Source of the DNA: an uncultured Solirubrobacterales bacterium
GTDB taxonomy: Bacteria; Actinomycetota; Thermoleophilia; Solirubrobacterales; JBBDJG01
Direction: 5' to 3'
NCBI GenBank assembly: GCA_963716195.1
Contig: OY970293.1
Coordinates: forward strand, 152,462 to 216,461
Length of the DNA: 64,000 bases
The number at the start of each line of letters is the position of its first letter. Position 1 is the stretch's first letter. This document shows positions 2,180 through 59,743 of this stretch, piece after piece. The notes under the pieces are model-generated. The model was not told where the DNA came from. It ran no database searches and saw only the letters and a program-made list of their open reading frames with translations. The position numbers and the translations under genes were made by a program.

Positions 2180-3213
2180 CGAACGACTGAGTCCACCACG
2201 CCGGCTAGGACCGTGCCGACTGCCTGCACGGAGAACATGTCGATCGCCCGCTCGCGGGCGAGCGCTCCAAGGCGACCGCGTAACTCCGTGGAGCGCAGCT
2301 GCTCCAGCGCGCGAGTCAGGGCATCGGGGTCATCGGGCGGCACGATCAACCCGCTGTCGCCGAGCGCCCAGCGCAGCGGTGGGAGATCGCTGGCAATCAT
2401 TGCCCGGCCCGACATCATGCCGTCAATCAGCTTCACGGGCAGTTGGCCGCGGCCGTAGACCGTCGGGCTCGAGGCGACGACGACAACGTCGGTCCGATCG
2501 ACGAGAGCCAGCCCGTCGGCGACGCCGGTTCTTCCGACCCAGCGTTCGTGGGGCTGCGCGTCCGGCGGCGCGGGCGAGGTGACTGTCAGCGTGGCCCCGG
2601 AAATCCTGCTCACCGCTTCGCGCAGGACGCCGACACCTTTGTGGGGACGGGGAGTGCCGACGAACGCCACGTCGAGCGATTCGTGGTCGGAATGCTCCCG
2701 GCCCGCCGGTCGCACCGCGCGAGCGTGAGGCACGACAGTGCCCTCGCCGTACCAGCGGTGGATGCTGGGGTTCGAGACGGTAATTGGCCCGACGCTGCGG
2801 GCGCGCCGGCGCAGCCGATAGGCGGTCCAGGGCGGGTGCCCGCGCGCGGCCTGGCGCAAGAACGACACGAGCGCCTTTCCTCTCGTCTCGCCGTACGCGC
2901 GCTCCCAGTCCGGGTCGTCCACGTCGAGCACGAAAGGGATCGCCAGCCGCCGGCTCAACTCGAGGCCGCGGTCGAACGAACCCGGCAGCGGCTTGACGAC
3001 GATGAGCGCGCTTGCGCCTGCGGTCGCGGTCTCGGAATCGGTGGTGACGTCGGCCATGAATTCGTCCTCGCCGCGCACCGGCCGCCAGATGGTGCTCAAG
3101 TCCGGCACGAGGACACTGGTCTGCCAACCGAGATGGCGAGCCACGAGCCACAGCGAGTACGCACGACCGAGCGCATTGCCCGCCGCGCTGGGCGAGAGAA
3201 GACAAACCTTCAT
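2173..3213 (-). CDS. Glycosyltransferase family 4-like
   Basis: 346-aa ORF. N-terminal MKVCLLSPSAAGNALGRAY and a C-terminal GT-B sugar-donor domain (GQLPVKLIDGMMSGRAMIASD). Confidence 0.7.
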   Translation of the reverse strand: MKVCLLSPSAAGNALGRAYSLWLVARHLGWQTSVLVPDLSTIWRPVRGEDEFMADVTTDSETATAGASALIVVKPLPGSFDRGLELSRRLAIPFVLDVDDPDWERAYGETRGKALVSFLRQAARGHPPWTAYRLRRRARSVGPITVSNPSIHRWYGEGTVVPHARAVRPAGREHSDHESLDVAFVGTPRPHKGVGVLREAVSRISGATLTVTSPAPPDAQPHERWVGRTGVADGLALVDRTDVVVVASSPTVYGRGQLPVKLIDGMMSGRAMIASDLPPLRWALGDSGLIVPPDDPDALTRALEQLRSTELRGRLGALARERAIDMFSVQAVGTVLAGVVDSVVRH

Positions 3214-3231
3214 GACGGCGCAGGGACGGCG

Positions 3232-4509
3232 TCAGGCGAGCGCGCGCTCGAGCTCGCGCTCGAGTGCCGCGGCGACCGGGTCGTGCAGCGACGTTCCGTC
3301 CAGGCGTGACGCCACGACGCCGAGGAAGCCCCCGACGAGCAGGCGCTCCGCCTCACTGCGGTCGAGCCCCCGGGTGCGCAGATAGAAGACCTGCTCCTCG
3401 TCGATCTTGCCGATCGTTGCCGCGTGCGTGCAGCGAACGTCGTTCGCCTCGATCTCGAGGCCAGGGATGGCGTCCGCGTGCGCAGTGTCGCTCAGCAGCA
3501 GGTTGCGGTTCTCCTGAAAGGCGTCGGTGCGCTGCGCGGGCGGATCGACGCGGATCATCCCGCTCCACACGGCGCGCGCGCGGTCGCGGAGGATGCCGCG
3601 AAACGCTAAGTCCGAGGTGGTGTCCGGCGCCGCGTGCTCCTGCGTGGTGTCGTAGTCGATGCGCTGGTTGCCGTGACCGACGTAGGCGCCGGTAACGCGT
3701 CCGTCCGCGCCGCGACCTTCGAGCGTCGTCTCCATCCGCAGCTTGCCGTCGCCCGCGCCCAGACCGAGCCCCACCCAGTGCAGCGAGCCGTCACGGGCCA
3801 CGCTGGCGCGCTGGCTTCCGAGCACCCAGCTCTGCTCGGACAGGTCCTGAACGCAGAGGTAGCTGACGCGGGCGTTCTCGCCGACCGTCAGTTCGACAAC
3901 CGGGTTGAAGTAGGCGTCGAGCCCGTCGTCGCTCGACAGGTACTGCTCGACGAGAGTCAGCTCGGCCCCTTCCTCGACCACGATCAGCGAGCGCCAGTGG
4001 AGGGCGGTGCCGTCAGTCGCCTGGATGGCGGTCAGAACGACTGGATCGGAGACGCTGACGCCCTTCGGCACGTAGACGAATGCGCCGCCGTGCCAGCGCG
4101 CCGTGTTCTGGGCCGCGAACTTGTCGCGGTCCAGGACCAGGGCGCCGAGGTGCGCGCGCACGAGCTCAGGATGTTGCTCGATGGCCTTTTCCAGCGTCGT
4201 CACGATCACACCCTCGGGAGCGGGAGTCGCGTCGTGCGAAGCGGAGCCGTCGACTTGCTGGACCGAGGCGTGGCCCGTCGACTCCATGACCGGCAGGCGA
4301 CTCGGCAGGGTGTCGAGGTTGCCGTCGGAGGCGGGTTCGAACGTATCGAGGTCGAAACTCGACAGGTCCGTGAACTCCCAGCCCTTGTCCTTCTGAACCG
4401 GGACCGGCAGGGTCTCGAACGCTTCCTCGCCGCGTCGGCGGAGAGCGGTCAGCCAGTCGGGCTCGGTTGTGTTGCGCGAAGCGGTTGCCTGACCACCAGC
4501 GCTACCCAA
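3232..4509 (-). CDS. sufD: Fe-S cluster assembly protein SufD
   Basis: 425-aa ORF with the SufBD beta-helix C-terminus ([55 protein letters not shown]). Overlaps the sufB stop by 8 nt. Confidence 0.9.
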
Positions 4510-8810: not shown

Positions 8811-8833
8811 TGGCTCCTTTCGATGCCTTTCGA

Positions 8834-9361
8834 TCACGCCGTGGCCGCAGCGGATCGGCCCGCGGCGGAACGGCTCTTCGACTTTGCCTTGGTCTTTGTC
8901 TGTGACGTCTTCTTGGCGGTCACGCCGTGCTCGGCGAAGTCGACCAGCTCCGCCAGCGTCGTCTGCTCGAGCGCCCGCGTGATGCCGCCCTGGACCCGAG
9001 TCCAGAGCAGTCGCGTCGCGCAGTGCTCGAAGCCGTCCAGCTCGTGGTTGCAGAGGACGCGCATCTCGCCAGGCTCGGCGAGGCACTGCATCGGCGCCAT
9101 CGATCCGCCCTCGAGCGCAGCGACCACCTCGGCCATCGTGATGCCGTCCGCCGCCCGCCCAAGCTCGTACCCTCCGTGCGCCCCCCGCGTCGATTGCACG
9201 AGCCCCGCTTCGCGCAGGCGCGCGATCAGGTGCTCGAGGTATGACAGCGGCAGGCCCTCCGCGGTGGCGATGTCGGCGAGCGACACCGGCCCTTCCTCGC
9301 GCCGGCGCCCCAGCGCGATCATGACTCGCACCCCGTACTCGGATCTGGTTGAGAACATCAT
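8834..9361 (-). CDS. Rrf2-family transcriptional regulator (probable Fe-S-sensing regulator of the suf cluster)
   Basis: [18 protein letters not shown]...[42 protein letters not shown] is a canonical Rrf2 wHTH. Three Cys are spaced C-x10-C-x9-C. The C-terminal tail is Lys/Ser-rich. Start ATGATG at 9361 is preceded by GGAGGT. Confidence 0.85.
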
Positions 9362-9414: not shown

Positions 9415-9688
9415 GGACGGGCACCGAAGGGGGGTGATCCAGGGCGCTCGGCTGGCGACCTAAGTGGGACGAAGCGCAGACGCTGTCGTGCCGGTTTGCA
9501 CGCTTAGCCAGCTTTACGACTTCTTCGTAACACCCCGAATCGTTGCGTGATGAGTTGGGGTGGCTATAGGGACATCAACTCATCACAGAACAAGGGCCCC
9601 CTCACAAATCGGCCATTTTCCACCACTCACGTACGCAAGTCGTGAGCTTCCGCAAACGCTCGTCACGGTCGCCTTTCGATGCCCGTCC
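9415..9688 (+). repeat. Copy A of an intergenic inverted-arm element family (long form, 274 nt)
   Basis: 5' arm GGACGGGCACCGAAGGGGGGTGATCC, 3' arm CGCCTTTCGATGCCCGTCC, central hairpin GTGATGAGTTG...CAACTCATCAC at 9547-9586. Shares blocks GCGCTCGGCTG, GTGCCGGTT, CGTAACACC and TTCCGCAAA with copy D. Lies 53 nt from the rrf2 start. Confidence 0.7.
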
Positions 9689-9733: not shown

Positions 9734-10390
9734 CTAGCTCCGCTCCCGCAACAACTCCCGCAGGTCATGCCCGAGCGCCTCGGGCGTGAGGAAGTCGATC
9801 GGGAATCCGACGCGCTGGCGGCCCTCGCGGTCTATCAGGACCACCCACGAGTTGTGCTCGACCCTCTCCGTTTGTGGCGAAAAGCCGTAAGCGCGCCACA
9901 CCGGCCGTAGCTCGTCGCGGGACCCGACCAGGAAGTCCATGTAGCCGCGCACCCGCTGCTCGAGCAGGAACGAGCGGGCGCTGTCAGCGCTGTCGTGTGC
10001 CGGGTCCACGCTCAGCGCAAGCGCCTTCACCTGCTCGCGCTTCCCGTCCGGCAACTCACCGAGCACGTCGCGTATCTGCTGGGCGATCAGCGGGCACGAG
10101 TCCTGGCAGGTCGTGTACATCGGCGCGAGCACCACGACCCGTCCGCGCAGCGCCCGCAGTGAGACCACGTCGCCGTCCTGGTCGGGCAGGGTGAAATCCC
10201 GTGGCGGGGTCTCGGGTCGGACCGCGCCCTTGAACTGCGACGTGGCGCCTTGAACCCCGTCCACCTCGGTCACCTGTGCGGCGGCGCCGTCGTTGCCGTC
10301 ATCGGAGCGGGCGGCGAGCGTGGCGGCGATCGCGCCGCCGAGCGCCATCACGGCGACCACGAGCAGCACCAGTTGCGCCCTTGAGAGCAC
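9734..10390 (-). CDS. SCO1/SenC-family copper chaperone (thioredoxin fold), membrane-anchored
   Basis: 218-aa ORF with an N-terminal TM helix and FTLPDQDGDVVSLRALRGRVVVLAPMYTTCQDSCPLIAQQI (CxxxC of the SCO family). Confidence 0.85.
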   Translation of the reverse strand: MLSRAQLVLLVVAVMALGGAIAATLAARSDDGNDGAAAQVTEVDGVQGATSQFKGAVRPETPPRDFTLPDQDGDVVSLRALRGRVVVLAPMYTTCQDSCPLIAQQIRDVLGELPDGKREQVKALALSVDPAHDSADSARSFLLEQRVRGYMDFLVGSRDELRPVWRAYGFSPQTERVEHNSWVVLIDREGRQRVGFPIDFLTPEALGHDLRELLRERS

Positions 10391-12170: not shown

Positions 12171-13031
12171 ATGTCACAGGTAACTCAAACGAATTGGAAG
12201 GCGGGAATCCGCACCACCATTCTGCTCGCGTCGCTGACGGGGCTGCTGGTGCTGCTCGGTGCGCTGATCGGCGGTCCGAGCACAGCACTCATGTTCCTGG
12301 TCATCGGGGCAGTCATAAACCTGGGTGCTTATTGGTTCTCGGACAAGATCGCTCTCAAGATGAGCCGGGCGAAGCCTCTGAACGAGGAAGACGCACCGAG
12401 GCTGCACCAGATGGTTCGCGAGCTCGCTCACTCGGCAGGATTGCCGATGCCGCGGCTGTACGTGATCCCGGCAAGCCAGCCGAACGCCTTCGCGACCGGC
12501 CGCAGCCCCAAGCACGCTGCGGTCGCGGTCACCGAGGGCATCACTCACCTCCTGAGCGAGAGTGAGTTGAGGGGCGTCATAGCGCACGAGTTGGCTCACA
12601 TCCGCAACCGCGACACGCTGATCACCTCCGTCGCCGCGACGATCGGCGGGGCGATCACGTGGATCGCCTACCTGCTCCTGTTCGTGGGCGGCGACGACGA
12701 CAGCCCGCTCGGGCTGATCGGCAGCCTCGCGCTGGTGATACTCGCGCCGATCTCGGCGACGATCATCCAGCTCGCCATCTCACGTCAGCGCGAGTACTCG
12801 GCCGACGCGACCGGTGCGCGCATCTCGGGTACGCCGAACGCCCTCGCGGACGCTCTCGAGCGTCTCGAGGCCGGCGCCAAGGAGATGCCGATGCAGGTCA
12901 ACGCGGCATCCGAGCCGCTCTACATCGTCAAGCCGTTCAGCGGCGGGGGCATCGCGGGTCTGTTCTCGACCCACCCCCCGATCGACGAACGCGTGCGGCG
13001 CCTGCGCGAGCTGGCAGGGAGCGTGAGCTAG
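12171..13031 (+). CDS. htpX: Zinc metalloprotease HtpX (M48)
   Basis: HELAHIRNRD zinc motif, four TM segments, C-terminal FSTHPPIDERVRRL. The track start is TTG 12165. ATG 12171 has AGGAAAG 9 nt upstream. Confidence 0.9.
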   Translation: MSQVTQTNWKAGIRTTILLASLTGLLVLLGALIGGPSTALMFLVIGAVINLGAYWFSDKIALKMSRAKPLNEEDAPRLHQMVRELAHSAGLPMPRLYVIPASQPNAFATGRSPKHAAVAVTEGITHLLSESELRGVIAHELAHIRNRDTLITSVAATIGGAITWIAYLLLFVGGDDDSPLGLIGSLALVILAPISATIIQLAISRQREYSADATGARISGTPNALADALERLEAGAKEMPMQVNAASEPLYIVKPFSGGGIAGLFSTHPPIDERVRRLRELAGSVS

Positions 13032-13160: not shown

Positions 13161-13988
13161 GTGCCGATGAGCGTGTATCTCGCGGCCTGCGCCATCTACC
13201 GGGACGAGGCGCACTACCTGCCCGAGTGGATCGAGTTTCACCGCCTGCTCGGAGTCGAGCGGTTTTTCCTGTACGACAACTTCAGCGAGGACGACCACCT
13301 GCGCGCACTGCGGCCGTACGTCCGCCAGGGCGTCGTCCATCCGCAGGACTGGCCGCTCTTCGGCGATCAGCAGCGCAGAGCGTACGACCACTGCCTCGGG
13401 GAGCATCGCGACGAGGCGCGCTGGATCGCGTTCATCGACCTCGACGAGTTCCTGTTCTCGCCCGGTGGCCGGCCGCTGCCCGAGCTGCTCGCCGAGTACG
13501 AGGACGCCCCGGGGGTGTGCGTGGCGCGGCGCGAGTACATGATGTCCGGCCACCAGACCCGCCCTGAAGGGCTCGTGATCGAGAACTACGTGCGGGCGCG
13601 GATCCTGCGCCCCGACCGCGCCGTCCCGTTCAAGAGCATCGTCGATCCGAGCCGCGCGAATCACTGCCTGAACTCCCACAACTTCGCCTACCGCGACAGC
13701 GCCCTGCCCGTGGACGAGAAGGGAGAGGTCATGAAGCCGCCCTGGCGCACCAGGGCTGTGCCCTGCGAGCGGCTGCGGGTCAACCACTACTTCACGAAGT
13801 CCGCCGAGGAGGCCAAGAGCAAGCTGGCTACCCTCGACGCTCGCGGCCTGCCGCGCCCGCTCGAGATGCCGGAGGACTTTGACAGGTGGGTCCGGGCCGA
13901 GCCCGACCTCACCTATGAGGACGACGTGCTCGTCTCCTATGGCCCAGCTGTGCGGGCCGCCCTGGAGCGGTCCAGTACCGCTTGCTAG
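13161..13988 (+). CDS. Glycosyltransferase family 92-like protein (paralogue 1)
   Basis: MSVYLAACAIYRDEAHYLPEWIEFHRLLGVERFFLYDNFSEDD...IAFIDLDEFLF matches my recollection of bacterial GT92/DUF23 proteins. Clear paralogue of 43889-44680. Confidence 0.65.
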   Translation: MPMSVYLAACAIYRDEAHYLPEWIEFHRLLGVERFFLYDNFSEDDHLRALRPYVRQGVVHPQDWPLFGDQQRRAYDHCLGEHRDEARWIAFIDLDEFLFSPGGRPLPELLAEYEDAPGVCVARREYMMSGHQTRPEGLVIENYVRARILRPDRAVPFKSIVDPSRANHCLNSHNFAYRDSALPVDEKGEVMKPPWRTRAVPCERLRVNHYFTKSAEEAKSKLATLDARGLPRPLEMPEDFDRWVRAEPDLTYEDDVLVSYGPAVRAALERSSTAC

Positions 13989-23712: not shown

Positions 23713-23787
23713 TTGGTCGTGAGGCTAACTGTGGAGGGCATGTAGTCGTGGTTGGGCCAGACCCCGTTGACGTCGCGCCACAGGCAG

Positions 23788-24057
23788 GACAGGCATCGAA
23801 GGGGGGTGAGACGGATCTATGCCGAAGCTCGCGACATGCATGAACAAGCGGCATGAGTTGACCGATCCTTGAGGTCCACTTCTTTTGTGATGAGTTGACC
23901 GGGCTATAGCCCCATCAACTCATCACATAGGGATCGGGTGCGTTACGCGAATGTCGTAAAGATCGCTAAGCGCACCAACCGCCACAGCTTCCGCGGTGTC
24001 GCGTTTCACTTGGGTCATCAGCCGTATCGCTCCGGATCACCCCCTTCGATGCCAGTC
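23788..24057 (-). repeat. Copy B of the inverted-arm element family (long form, 270 nt, reverse orientation relative to A)
   Basis: Plus strand: GACAGGCATCGAAGGGGGGTGAGACGG ... CCGGATCACCCCCTTCGATGCCAGTC. Central hairpin GTGATGAGTTG-ACCGGGCTATAGCCCCAT-CAACTCATCAC at 23887-23926. The reverse complement aligns block by block with copy A. Lies 75 nt from the hyuA start. Confidence 0.7.
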
Positions 24058-24099
24058 CCAAAAAGACCCCCCGCACGACTCCGGAGAAAATCAACCCCA

Positions 24100-24138
24100 A
24101 CCCACAAAAGCGAAGCGACCCCCAATCTCGGGGGTCGC
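24100..24138 (-). terminator. Intrinsic terminator of the 24231-24683 gene
   Basis: GCGACCCCC-(6 nt)-GGGGGTCGC, a 9-bp GC stem at 24115-24138. On the minus strand it is followed by TTCGCTTTTGTGGG. Confidence 0.6.
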
Positions 24139-24230
24139 CTCTGTGCGGAGGGGGTCTCTCTTGTACTTCCCGCTTGAAGCGGGTCCGGGGCGGTTGTCAG
24201 ACAACCGCCACCGGCACGAAGTGATCGGCT

Positions 24231-43888: not shown

Positions 43889-44680
43889 CTAGCGTCGCGC
43901 GAGTGCCTCGCGCAGCGCCGGCAGGTAGGTGAGGATCGCCTCGTCGGGGCGGCTGTTCTCTTGATCGCGAATACGCATCCGCCTTCTGGTTCGCCCCGGT
44001 GGGTAGGGCTCGCCCGTGTCGGGTCGGAGGCGGGCGAACTTGGCCTCCAGCTCTTCCTCGGACTTCGTCCAGTAGTGATTGATGCGCAGCCGCTCGGCGG
44101 TGAAGCTCTGCGCCTTTGCGGGCAGCGAGACGGGCCGGTGGAGCTCGTCGACGGTGTCGCCGTCGGTTCTGAACAGGTGCGGATTGATGGGGCGCTCGGC
44201 CCTTTCGGGGTTGACGATGCTCTTCACGAAGTGGGCCTGGACATGCGCGGTGAGGACGCGCCGGTAGCTCTCCACGACAAGACCGGGTGGCTTCGTGACG
44301 TGCCCCGACGTCCCGAAGAAGAGCCGGCAGGCCCCGACGGCGGGCCACTGCTCGTACTCGGTGAGGAGCTCGGGAAGCGGCTGCCCCAGGGGAGAGAACA
44401 GGAACTCGTCGGTATCGATGAAGGCGATCCAGCGCGCGTCTTTCCGGTGCTGCTGGAGACAGTCGCCATAGGCCGGTATCTGCGGAGCCGCTCCGGGCCA
44501 TTCGTGCAGCACGACGGTGCCCTCGGCGCAGTAGGGCGCGAGCAACTCACGCTGGACCTCACGGTCGCCGTTGTTGTAGAGGAAGAAGCGCTTGGCCCCC
44601 ACGAGGCGATGGAACTCGATCCATTCGGCCAGGTAGGGAGCGTCGTAACCGAGGCAGGCGCAGACAGCAAGGTCGACCAT
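43889..44680 (-). CDS. Glycosyltransferase family 92-like protein (paralogue 2)
   Basis: MVDLAVCACLGYDAPYLAEWIEFHRLVGAKRFFLYNNGDRE...IAFIDTDEFLFSP...LRINHYWTKSEEE. Colinear with 13161-13988. Confidence 0.65.
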   Translation of the reverse strand: MVDLAVCACLGYDAPYLAEWIEFHRLVGAKRFFLYNNGDREVQRELLAPYCAEGTVVLHEWPGAAPQIPAYGDCLQQHRKDARWIAFIDTDEFLFSPLGQPLPELLTEYEQWPAVGACRLFFGTSGHVTKPPGLVVESYRRVLTAHVQAHFVKSIVNPERAERPINPHLFRTDGDTVDELHRPVSLPAKAQSFTAERLRINHYWTKSEEELEAKFARLRPDTGEPYPPGRTRRRMRIRDQENSRPDEAILTYLPALREALARR

Positions 44681-49798: not shown

Positions 49799-50161
49799 AT
49801 GGGCATAGCGGGTCTCGGCATCGACGTGCTCGAGATCGATCGCCTCGAGCGCGCGCTCGAGCGGTGGCCACGCCTGCCGGAGCGCCTCTTCACCGAGGCT
49901 GAGCGCAATTACGCCGCCGAGCGGGCGCGCCCCGCGCAACACCTCGCGGCGCGCTTCTGCGCGAAGGAGGCGGTCGCGAAGTCGCTCGGGATCGAGGGCT
50001 GGAGCTTCACCGACGTCGAGGTGCTGCCGGGAACACCGCCGACCGTGCGTCTGAGCGGCCGCGCCGAACAGCGCGCGAAGAATCTTGGAGTGTCAGTACA
50101 TGTCTCGCTCACCCACTCGCGAGGCACGGCGGCGGCGGTTGCGCTGGCGAGCAGTAGTTGA
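49799..50161 (+). CDS. acpS: Holo-[acyl-carrier-protein] synthase
   Basis: 120-aa ORF: GLGIDVLEIDRLERAL...FTEAERNYA...LAARFCAKEAVAKSLG...SLTHSRGTAAAVAL. Confidence 0.85.
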   Translation: MGIAGLGIDVLEIDRLERALERWPRLPERLFTEAERNYAAERARPAQHLAARFCAKEAVAKSLGIEGWSFTDVEVLPGTPPTVRLSGRAEQRAKNLGVSVHVSLTHSRGTAAAVALASSS

Positions 50162-50188
50162 CGACTGTGGGTCGCGGCCCATCTCCGG

Positions 50189-50462
50189 GATGGGCATCGA
50201 GGGAGGGTGTGTCATTGCGCTCGGCTGACGAGCTGAGTTGGACGAGACACCGACGGGGTTGTGCCGGTTCTTCCGCCTAGCGACCGTTCGCGACATCCGC
50301 GTAACACCGCCCATCATCGAGTGAACACTTGGAGGACCCACAGGCCCCTCAACTGTTCAGTCGACAGGTGGCCCCTCACAGGTGGGTCAACATCTTTCAT
50401 TCAGGTGCGCGACTTGCGAGGTTCCGCAAAACTATCGTCACAATCCCCTTCGATGCCCGCCC
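50189..50462 (+). repeat. Copy D of the inverted-arm element family (long form, 274 nt)
   Basis: 5' GATGGGCATCGAGGGAGGGTGTGTC ... 3' GTCACAATCCCCTTCGATGCCCGCC. Variant central hairpin GTGAACACTTG...CAACTGTTCAG at 50321-50360. Lies 52 nt from the nnr GTG start. Confidence 0.7.
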
Positions 50463-58444: not shown

Positions 58445-59209
58445 ATGGTGACGGCAAGAAAGCTCACAGCATTGGTTTGCGCGGCGGCGTCACTCGCCGT
58501 GCTTGTGGCGTGGTCGGTCGCGACGGCGGCGGGAGAACCGCGCGTGCAGGCTGCGGCGAAGTCGGTCGTGCTCGGCAAGACTGCGAACTACCCCGCCTCC
58601 GGATGTCCGAAGGAGGACAAGTGCGAGGTGGTCGCGCGCGTGACCGGGATCCAGATGGCGGCCGACGGTGTGATGCATCCGTTCCGGGCACCGTCAAGCG
58701 GCCAGATCGTCGCATGGTGGTTGAAGCTGCCGGCGCTGCACAGTACCCAGATCACCTCCTTTTCCCAGCTGTTCGGCGGCGGCCCGTCCGCGCAGCTCAG
58801 CATCCTGCGACGCGGCAAGCGCGGCCGCGTGCGACTCGTGCGCCAGAGCCCGGCAGAGGACCTGCGCCCTCGCCTGGGCGCGAAAGGACGGGTGCGCTTC
58901 CGGCTCGCGCAGCCACTGCGCGTCAAGGCCGGTGACTACATCGGGCTGACGGCGATCACATGGGTGCCCGCCTTCGCGGTCAACCTCGACGCCGTGGGGG
59001 ATGTCTGGCTCGCAAGCCGCACGTCCGATCGCTGCAGCACGCCGTCCAGCCGCGATCCAAAGCAGTTCGCGCGCTACTACAAGAGGTCAGATGCGCACGT
59101 GCAGACGAGCACCGTGAAGCAGTACCGCTGCAGCTACCGCACCGCGCGCCTGTTGTACTGGGCGCGGCTGGTGCCGGACGAGCAGACTCCAGCGCCGCCG
59201 AGCCCATAG
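58445..59209 (+). CDS. Secreted hypothetical protein
   Basis: 254-aa ORF with signal peptide MVTARKLTALVCAAASLAVLVAWSVATAAG and several Cys pairs. No family recognised. Confidence 0.55.
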   Translation: MVTARKLTALVCAAASLAVLVAWSVATAAGEPRVQAAAKSVVLGKTANYPASGCPKEDKCEVVARVTGIQMAADGVMHPFRAPSSGQIVAWWLKLPALHSTQITSFSQLFGGGPSAQLSILRRGKRGRVRLVRQSPAEDLRPRLGAKGRVRFRLAQPLRVKAGDYIGLTAITWVPAFAVNLDAVGDVWLASRTSDRCSTPSSRDPKQFARYYKRSDAHVQTSTVKQYRCSYRTARLLYWARLVPDEQTPAPPSP

Positions 59210-59244
59210 GGCCGGAATCCCGGGCCGTCGGCCGAGCCGTCCGA

Positions 59245-59335
59245 GCGCCGATCATCGGCTGAACACTTAGGTACCCCAGAGGGTCCTCAACTGTTCAGCC
59301 GGCAAGTGGCTCCTGACTGATCGGCCATCTTGCGC
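59245..59335 (+). repeat. Partial copy E of the inverted-arm element family (central hairpin plus part of the 3' domain)
   Basis: GATCATCGGCTGAACACTTAGG...CCTCAACTGTTCAG (hairpin 59259-59298) parallels D 50312-50360. GATCGGCCATCTTGCGCC parallels A AATCGGCCATTTTCCACC. No terminal arms are visible. Confidence 0.45.
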
Positions 59336-59338
59336 CGG

Positions 59339-59743
59339 CTAACAGGCGCTCGGGTTCTGCTGGCAGAACTCGTCGAACTTAGGGGCGGGGCTGCCGCCGC
59401 TCGACGGTTGATCGTTCTGCTGCGGTCCTCCCTGGGGCTCGTCGGGCGCCGCGCCCGCGCCGCCGGTGTCCGGCTCGCTCGGAGGCGCCGCCGCGCCGCC
59501 GCTCTGGTCGGTGCCCGGGGTGCTCGAGTCGCCGCCGGTCGTTCCTTCCTTGGTCCGTGTTCGGTTCGAGTCCGTCTTGGTGTCCGTCAGGGTGCCGGCC
59601 GAACCACCGGGGACGGTGAGATCGGGGGGTGCCGTATCGGTGGACTTGGAACCTCCGTCGTCGCCCGAGCTGGCGATCACCACGCCGACGAGGAGGCCGG
59701 TCAGCACGGCCCCGAGGGCGATCACTGCGACTCTGTTGCTCAC
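59339..59743 (-). CDS. Membrane-anchored low-complexity (Gly/Thr/Pro/Asp-rich) protein
   Basis: 134-aa ORF with N-terminal TM helix VAVIALGAVLTGLLVGVVIA, a disordered region, and C-terminal KFDEFCQQNPSAC. Confidence 0.5.
   Translation of the reverse strand: MSNRVAVIALGAVLTGLLVGVVIASSGDDGGSKSTDTAPPDLTVPGGSAGTLTDTKTDSNRTRTKEGTTGGDSSTPGTDQSGGAAAPPSEPDTGGAGAAPDEPQGGPQQNDQPSSGGSPAPKFDEFCQQNPSAC

Follow-up and report, generated by a model that had tools for sequence, protein, structure and literature searches.

What kind of object is the hairpin that lies between acpS and nnr at positions 50321-50360? Similar hairpins stand at three other sites in the window (by which we mean the whole 64 kb stretch of DNA analysed here), and their arms differ from site to site in ways that leave them complementary. 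This raises the question of whether they are maintained as RNA, as DNA, or as part of something that moves. At the level of sequence, the hairpins can be shown to belong to a non-coding, insertion-polymorphic repeat family in which pairing has been kept through changes on both arms. The window has a G+C content of 69%, and its genes are mostly housekeeping genes (suf, cysO/cysM, hydantoinase, pyrF, guaB/guaA, rplM/rpsI, glmM, glmS, acpS, nnr and alr). It also contains long inverted repeats at 13179-13835 and 44027-44671 (73-79% complementary), which correspond to two Glyco_transf_92 paralogues, encoded on opposite strands at a distance of about 30 kb.

We label the four sites A, B, D and E. 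The hairpin of A (9547-9586, plus strand) reads G TGATGAGTTG and, 18 nt later, CAACTCATCA C, with a degenerate apical stem. That of B (23887-23926, in an element on the minus strand) has the same arms as A around a different loop; in full form, the arms of A and B are GTGATGAGTTG / CAACTCATCAC. The hairpin of D (50321-50360, plus strand) reads G TGAACACTTG .. CAACTGTTCA G and that of E (59259-59298, plus strand) C TGAACACTTA .. CAACTGTTCA G, so that both share the arms TGAACACTTG(A) / CAACTGTTCA. At all four sites, the loop is the 18 nt between TTG/TTA and CAA. These stems and coordinates had been given by an earlier, sequence-only reading, and re-reading the sequence confirmed them, together with the observation at its centre: a pair-preserving double swap at stem positions 4-5, where A and B have TG/CA and D and E have AC/GT. 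Its finer points also held up: A and B share an outermost G-C pair, for which E has C-G and D an unpaired G/G; A and B pair G with C at position 7, where D and E have a C·C mismatch; and the loop of B is the perfect palindrome GGGCTATAGCCC. What it overlooked is that B is oriented opposite to A and D, with flanks that align only as the reverse complement. As the hairpin is palindromic, B looks alike despite this inversion, and the loops can be compared only after reversing B.

Folding predicts a single long hairpin for each of A, B, D and E (z-scores of -2.4 to -8.4), and all seven copies that were folded (the four in the window and three bare ones from metagenomes) form hairpins, with energies of -20.6 to -32.6 kcal/mol. 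The core stem-loop measures 38-48 nt, an imperfect palindrome of the kind by which REPs are recognised (20-40 nt). A 47-nt degenerate pattern matches the A, B, D and E sites and no others in the window, with 0 matches expected by chance. In D, an additional TCGA/TCGA pairing extends outside the stem (50317-50364).

A few smaller features surround the hairpins. That of B (23887-23926) carries stop codons in three frames (TGA TGA, TGA, and the TAG within its CTATAG loop), and as it is nearly palindromic, these are present on both strands; the D and E hairpins are without such three-frame stops. The 12-nt arm sequence ATGAGTTGACCG at 23890-23901 in B is repeated at 23853-23864, 37 nt from the hairpin, and D has GGGTCAAC at 50384-50391, the place equivalent to B's second arm copy, forming an extra arm-like half-site on one side. 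Pairing of CCGATC with GATCGG could form an outer helix that encloses the hairpin together with some 20 nt 3' of it, but at 69% pairing in six copies this helix is too weak to claim. Its candidate blocks lie at 9536-9541 with 9609-9614 in A (approximate, with an extra A in the 5' block), at 23921-23927 with 23851-23857 in B (minus strand), at 50310-50316 with 50380-50386 in D and at 59248-59254 with 59318-59324 in E. They show a single G-C to C-G swap (in D) and are missing from the copy on contig L063 described below.

At three of the sites, the hairpin is the centre of a longer element. Element A (9415..9688, plus strand, 274 nt) is flanked by two minus-strand genes, those of SCO1/SenC (stop at 9734) and of an Rrf2 regulator (start at 9360). 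Element B (23787..24058, minus strand, 272 nt) is downstream of an intrinsic terminator at 24112-24141 (minus strand), a 13-bp G+C-rich stem followed by the T-run GCTTTTGTGG, which is kept in the related contig L055. Element D (50187..50462, plus strand, 276 nt) lies between acpS, which ends at 50161, and nnr, which starts at about 50516. These 272-276-nt repeats are about 66% identical to one another and have terminal inverted repeats of 20-25 nt (GGGCATCGAAGGGG); in D, the left one is GGGATGGGCATCGAGGGAGGGTG and the right one ends in CCCCTTCGATGCCCGCCC. The core of the terminal repeats, GGGCAYCGARGGGGG, occurs at each end of A, B and D, and of the L063 copy as well (5 matches vs 0.13 expected). 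When A, B and D are folded as single strands, their ends pair with each other and the hairpin sits at the centre. A palindrome spanning the whole element was rejected: outside the ends and the hairpin, clear self-complementarity is confined to B and E. A, B and D are non-coding, with overlapping ORFs that lack the GC3 signature of genes. All four elements in the window are intergenic, and the long forms occur in either orientation relative to the neighbouring genes, A being antisense to both of its neighbours.

The target-site flanks contain only short, inconsistent direct repeats, and the available empty sites are too diverged to fix the junctions; the L063 copy has a 10/12 direct match in its flanks (TCGCCCGAGGGA / TCGCCTGAAGGA). 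Elsewhere in the window, GGCATCGAAAGGAG at 8815-8827 (minus strand) immediately precedes the start codon (ATG) of an ABC-ATPase gene, probably sufC, located after the Rrf2 gene. It resembles the terminal-repeat core, which thus looks like a Shine-Dalgarno region, although this may be coincidence.

Element E (59213..59336, plus strand) is a 124-nt insertion that contains the hairpin core and has no terminal inverted repeats. Its match to the long form is limited to about 90 nt around the hairpin, and it lies between convergent genes with stop codons at 59207-59209 (TAG) and 59339-59341 (CTA). The tandem elements C1 and C2 (37234..37705, plus strand; about 238 nt each and 82% alike) have a terminal-repeat core of GCATCGAAGG / CCTTTCGATGCC and ends that read GCATCGAAGGAGGG ... 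CCCTTTCGATGCCCC; they have no central hairpin, and their interiors are unrelated to those of the long forms. This points to C1 and C2 being a second repeat family that uses the ends of the long forms.

To see whether these elements are present in relatives, we compared the window with JGI metagenome contigs from close, Solirubrobacterales-like relatives, whose proteins are 99% (L006-L012), 96-97% (L013 and L063) or 85-91% (L014 and L061) identical to those of the window. The GlmS of the window is 77% identical to an NCBI-named Solirubrobacterales MAG protein. The strain with '99-100%' protein identity still differs from the window at about 12-24% of non-coding sites, and this divergence makes the closest strain a useful evolutionary distance. 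At the D site, the acpS-nnr spacer is 355 nt long in the window, where it holds D, compared to 70 nt in L006, 33 nt in L013 and 13 nt in L014, the last two being empty. In L006, with a 99% identical GlmS, only the right-end ~60 nt of the element is kept (12275-12334). At the E site, where the window has the 124-nt insertion, L006 has 5 nt between the convergent stops (TAGGGC^GGCTA) and in L014 the genes abut. B, in the hydantoinase spacer, is present in L055, which like L056 is among the closest contigs (proteins 99-100% identical), and absent from L061. For the E site and the hydantoinase spacer, the comparison covers the contigs at 99-100% and 85-91% identity.

The Rrf2-SCO1 spacer varies as well. 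The window has A here, on the plus strand and with a TG/CA stem, while the spacer of L061 is empty and 81 nt long. L056 has an orthologue of A (3883-4075) that is shorter by ~75 nt in the stretch from the hairpin to the right terminal repeat. In L063, the spacer (2980-3552) contains a different copy, inverted and with an AC/GT stem and a G-C pair at position 7 (3186-3501). This spacer looks like an insertion hot spot. The same L063 spacer also holds a separate inverted-repeat element of about 80 nt (GGGGCGCCAAGG ... CCTTGGCGCC), which was not seen in the window. The stub of D in L006 and the variant of A in L056 are size variants that arose by deletion. Such differences in presence and size between relatives are characteristic of mobile DNA in which internal deletions also occur.

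The window contains only two stem types (A/B and D/E), which amount to a single set of events that is not beyond chance, and copies from outside the window were therefore needed. We scanned metagenome contigs with a hairpin pattern and obtained 39 matches, of which only L030, L037, L047 and L051 are high-G+C hairpins of this family, on contigs of 70-72% G+C and none with long-form flanks. These four bare hairpins and the L063 copy make five copies beyond the window. The pattern fixed 18 bases of the hairpin region in the bare copies; the L063 copy was found through a neighbouring protein, and those of L055 and L056 were likewise not chosen through their hairpins. All three retain the invariant hairpin core. 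The family is thus seen in three forms: as a bare hairpin of ~40-50 nt between convergent genes, as the 124-nt core (E), and as the centre of the ~275-nt elements bounded by terminal inverted repeats.

In genome contigs, a flank pattern able to match A, B and D found five sites, all judged to be chance as they were low in G+C or lacked both terminal repeat and hairpin. Two scans of viral contigs returned only noise, and these matches served as a control for chance. Plasmids yielded no blastn match to D or B, Rfam (at the gathering score and at E<=10) matched nothing at any element, nor was there a tRNA, and literal sequence searches of the literature returned only unrelated primers. A covariance model (R1, filters off) found no additional copies in the window and ~170 kb of related loci except the orthologues and L063, and no second hairpin, as in an inverted doublet, within the elements or nearby. 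REPs are characterised by more than about 100 copies per genome; the count here is four copies in the 64 kb window and none in a further 7.4 kb of sequence.

Every copy that lacks terminal repeats (E, L030, L037, L047 and L051) lies between convergent genes, whose stop codons abut the hairpin or fall inside its arms. L030 (9037-10787) and L047 (2591-2595) are orthologous loci with 90% identity, at which L030 carries an additional 1751 bases directly next to the hairpin. This indel reads TCGAT at both of its junctions, the far one being preceded by GTCAACT, which resembles a hairpin arm. The TCGAT motif also adjoins the hairpin in most copies and occurs inside the terminal-repeat core. In L047 (2549-2595), each arm has a TGA at its foot, one per strand, and these two triplets are the stop codons of the convergent genes (gene ends at 2551 and 2584); as the feet double as stops, the two genes are separated by the hairpin alone.

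With these copies, covariation could be measured on ten sequences, representing eight independent insertions and two orthologues. Stem positions 4-5 each show three pair types and are never unpaired: the dinucleotides are TG/CA, AC/GT, GG/CC and GT/AC, all Watson-Crick. Among the chance matches, from low-G+C contigs, both pairs were Watson-Crick in 8 of 109 distinct pattern matches (7%), so that the probability of four independent types all pairing by chance is about 3e-5. Over the whole 22-pair stem, 79.5% of cells are paired, compared to 65.7 ± 2.3% in shuffles (0/500 reach the observed value), and pairing falls to 31-43% when the partners are slid by 1-3 columns. Twelve of the 22 pairs have changed on both sides, giving a covariation score of 0.378 vs 0.152 ± 0.028 in shuffles, again reached by 0/500.

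The sequence-only reading had named a count of compensatory changes against chance, on more copies, as the check on its proposal, and in these ten copies the outcome favours maintained pairing. Its wider statement, that structure rather than sequence is kept, needs to be split. Pairing is indeed kept across the ten copies, but several sequence blocks are invariant too, namely TGA..A.TT, TCAACT..TCA and the loop-closing C-G; in the four bare copies the first two were fixed by the search pattern, so their invariance there is partly imposed. A loop motif, C-TAT(A/G)-G, is common to several copies, and the loops were left free by the pattern. The C·C mismatch at position 7 also recurs, in two stem types (D/E and L051). 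The difference between A/B and D/E is one between two subfamilies of a mobile repeat, rather than a change at one locus.

Orthologous copies show what happens to a hairpin in place. Their basal stem has changed at 2/48 positions, compared to 65/407 (16%) elsewhere in the elements (Fisher p=0.03), while the apical 16 nt have changed at 8-9/32, often with loss of pairs. In L030 and L047, the hairpin and 3 adjoining nt are identical at 41/41 positions, whereas the flanks are 90% identical and the adjacent spacer differs. The basal stem thus seems to be constrained at individual loci. The earlier interpretation of a maintained hairpin is supported, with the caveat that the apical stems of individual copies do decay. 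Conservation of the basal stem in place is not needed by a purely selfish element, and may reflect either a role at the level of the host or homogenisation between copies.

Our preferred reading, which we hold to be probable though by no means certain, is that the hairpin is the conserved core of REP- or MITE-like repeats, and that its folded single strand is recognised by a putative transposase or recombinase, with A/B and D/E as subfamilies. This reading draws on only eight independent copies, four of which come from the pattern that fixes 18 bases. Some stem positions are fixed while others vary but stay complementary, as expected if a one-strand fold and a few sequence-specific contacts are preserved. 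We suggest that folded single-stranded DNA would be recognised by the putative enzyme much as in REP/RAYT systems and at IS200/IS605 ends, and that the recurrent C·C mismatch at position 7 might mark one strand. The A/B and D/E stems would then be subfamilies derived from different source copies, and after insertion, the apical part of each copy would drift while its basal stem persisted. No transposase of any kind was present among the called genes of the window or about 100 kb of related contigs, no RAYT, TnpA or TnpB genes were seen in the window and related contigs, and no autonomous IS with the element ends (GGGCATCGAAGG) was found in the window or related loci.

The pairing data are equally compatible with an RNA hairpin and a DNA hairpin. 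The main alternative is that the hairpin works mostly as RNA, as a two-way 3'-end structure (a terminator, exonuclease block or insulator) that is kept by the host and was spread by the repeat. Such a role is compatible with mobility, and we give it a limited but real chance. It fits with the position of the five copies without terminal repeats, all between convergent genes with stops abutting or inside the arms, as well as with the identity of the L030 and L047 hairpins amid diverged flanks and the conservation of the basal stem between orthologues; G·U pairs on the canonical strand at column pair 24-41 also favour it. But no T-run follows the stem on either strand, and a consensus terminator scan was empty in A, in D and at B's hairpin (sigma-70-like promoters were likewise not found inside A, B and D). 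The T-run terminator beside B shows that the organism uses ordinary terminators. An RNA role also sits poorly with the long forms occurring in either orientation, A even being antisense to both neighbours, with the decay of apical stems between orthologues, and with the absence of an Rfam match.

Compensatory changes do not necessarily require selection, since template switching can both create and maintain hairpins without it (doi 10.1101/2021.04.15.439925). Template switching during replication, or conversion between copies, could recopy one arm from the other in reverse complement, so that a multi-base 'compensatory' change arises in one neutral step. The differences between A and its L056 orthologue have this appearance, as the 5' apical arm shows whole groups of bases replaced together (GGGGT vs TGCCC) instead of scattered point changes. 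However, such a process leaves several things unexplained: the positions that are invariant across metagenomes amid variable neighbours (an invariance imposed in part by the search pattern, although L063, L055 and L056 were not selected by it), the C·C mismatch that persists in the two stem types D/E and L051, and the insertion polymorphism. As an account of the pairing, we consider it improbable.

We consider it far less plausible still that the symmetry is kept because a dimeric regulator binds the site as double-stranded operator DNA, with each arm as a half-site. The dyad symmetry with its invariant blocks, TGA..AGTTGA / TCAACT..TCA, and the position of A upstream of an Rrf2-family regulator gene would suit an operator, but the 16-18 nt between the conserved blocks are self-complementary and yet differ from copy to copy, which fits a continuous stem rather than two half-sites. 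Moreover, most copies are at the 3' ends of genes and not at promoters, two specificity variants coexist in one genome, and A lies beyond a conserved motif (GGTCAGGATAACAG) that stays beside the Rrf2 gene in all relatives. The outer core sites of an integron attC are RYYYAAC ... GTTRRRY, in one-directional cassette arrays with IntI nearby. We rejected an attC site, as the order here is GTTGA...TCAAC (GTT before AAC) among housekeeping neighbours, in mixed orientation and with no integrase or cassette array. A LexA box, a CRP-like site and parS were likewise dismissed, as their spacing or motif order does not fit.

Returning to the reading as a mobile repeat, the closest known relatives in kind are REPs and REPINs, which are mobilised by RAYT (TnpA-REP) tyrosine/HUH transposases whose genes the repeats flank. 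Compensatory changes are common in REPIN hairpins and have been reported since 2011 (PMC3116915), REP families contain subsets with different stems, some embedded in longer palindromes (PMC3733652), and the TnpA-REP and IS200/IS605 transposases depend on conserved mismatches in the stem to recognise a specific strand (PMC8266576). The present family is likewise a short, imperfect, extragenic palindrome, often at gene 3' ends. Subfamilies with different stems occur in the same genome, the hairpin is retained through compensatory changes, an irregularity conserved in the stem could single out one of the strands, and singletons decay. It differs in having no GTAG/CGTC tag: in the copy alignments, both hairpin feet lack GTAG/CTAC and CGTC, and instead the 5' flank is ATC-N6 and the stem starts with TGA. 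Its copies are singletons rather than inverted doublets (BIMEs), three of its hairpins sit in ~275-nt elements with terminal inverted repeats of their own, and its host is a Solirubrobacterales-like actinobacterium, a group absent from the two REP surveys we compared.

Correia, RUP and ERIC elements are bacterial MITEs with terminal inverted repeats. A, B and D resemble such elements in being 270-280 nt long, non-coding and intergenic, in either orientation and with terminal inverted repeats of 20-25 nt, as well as in their presence or absence between strains, their size variants by internal deletion, and the second family (C1/C2) with the same ends. No clear target-site duplication could be defined from the available flanks, and no autonomous IS with these ends was found in the window and related loci. 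In contrast to MITEs, the hairpin also exists alone and as a 124-nt insertion free of terminal repeats, which an ordinary MITE model does not predict.

The IS200/IS605 family, with its palindrome-associated miniature derivatives, offers a further parallel, as these elements are recognised through a single-stranded hairpin that contains a mismatched base. Similarly, E was inserted without terminal repeats and with a duplication of at most 1 nt, and the ATCGA/TCGAT beside the hairpin is the junction of the 1.75-kb indel between L030 and L047. However, IS200/IS605 elements have different hairpins near each end, whereas there is one central hairpin here, and for the present family no TnpA/TnpB was seen and there is a single clean junction (n=1), from which no target motif is established. 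Intrinsic terminators are similar in having a strong, G+C-containing hairpin right after stop codons, often between convergent genes, but the present hairpins have no T-run on either side, and their core sequence is conserved across unrelated loci.

This is a new repeat family of the familiar REP/MITE kind, in which compensatory change is typical of bacterial palindromic mobile repeats. As such change has been reported in REPINs since 2011, the known view of how these repeats evolve is unchanged. A bolder suggestion, which we regard as doubtful, is that it represents an undescribed, GTAG-less REP-like system of Thermoleophilia-type actinobacteria. The hairpin would then be a recognition module that is mobile alone (bare or as the 124-nt core), is nested in elements with terminal inverted repeats and is processed at ATCGA; at convergent gene ends it would be kept by the host, its TGA feet serving as stops and as part of a two-way 3'-end signal. 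The finding adds a repeat family from an actinobacterial lineage that is poorly studied and for the most part uncultured. Public metagenomes contain close relatives in which its sites are cleanly filled or cleanly empty, and the family is a practical marker for typing strains in these soil populations. Its unusual modular layout, in which the hairpin stands alone, forms part of a 124-nt unit or is enclosed in elements with terminal inverted repeats, could help to relate REP-like hairpins to MITEs.
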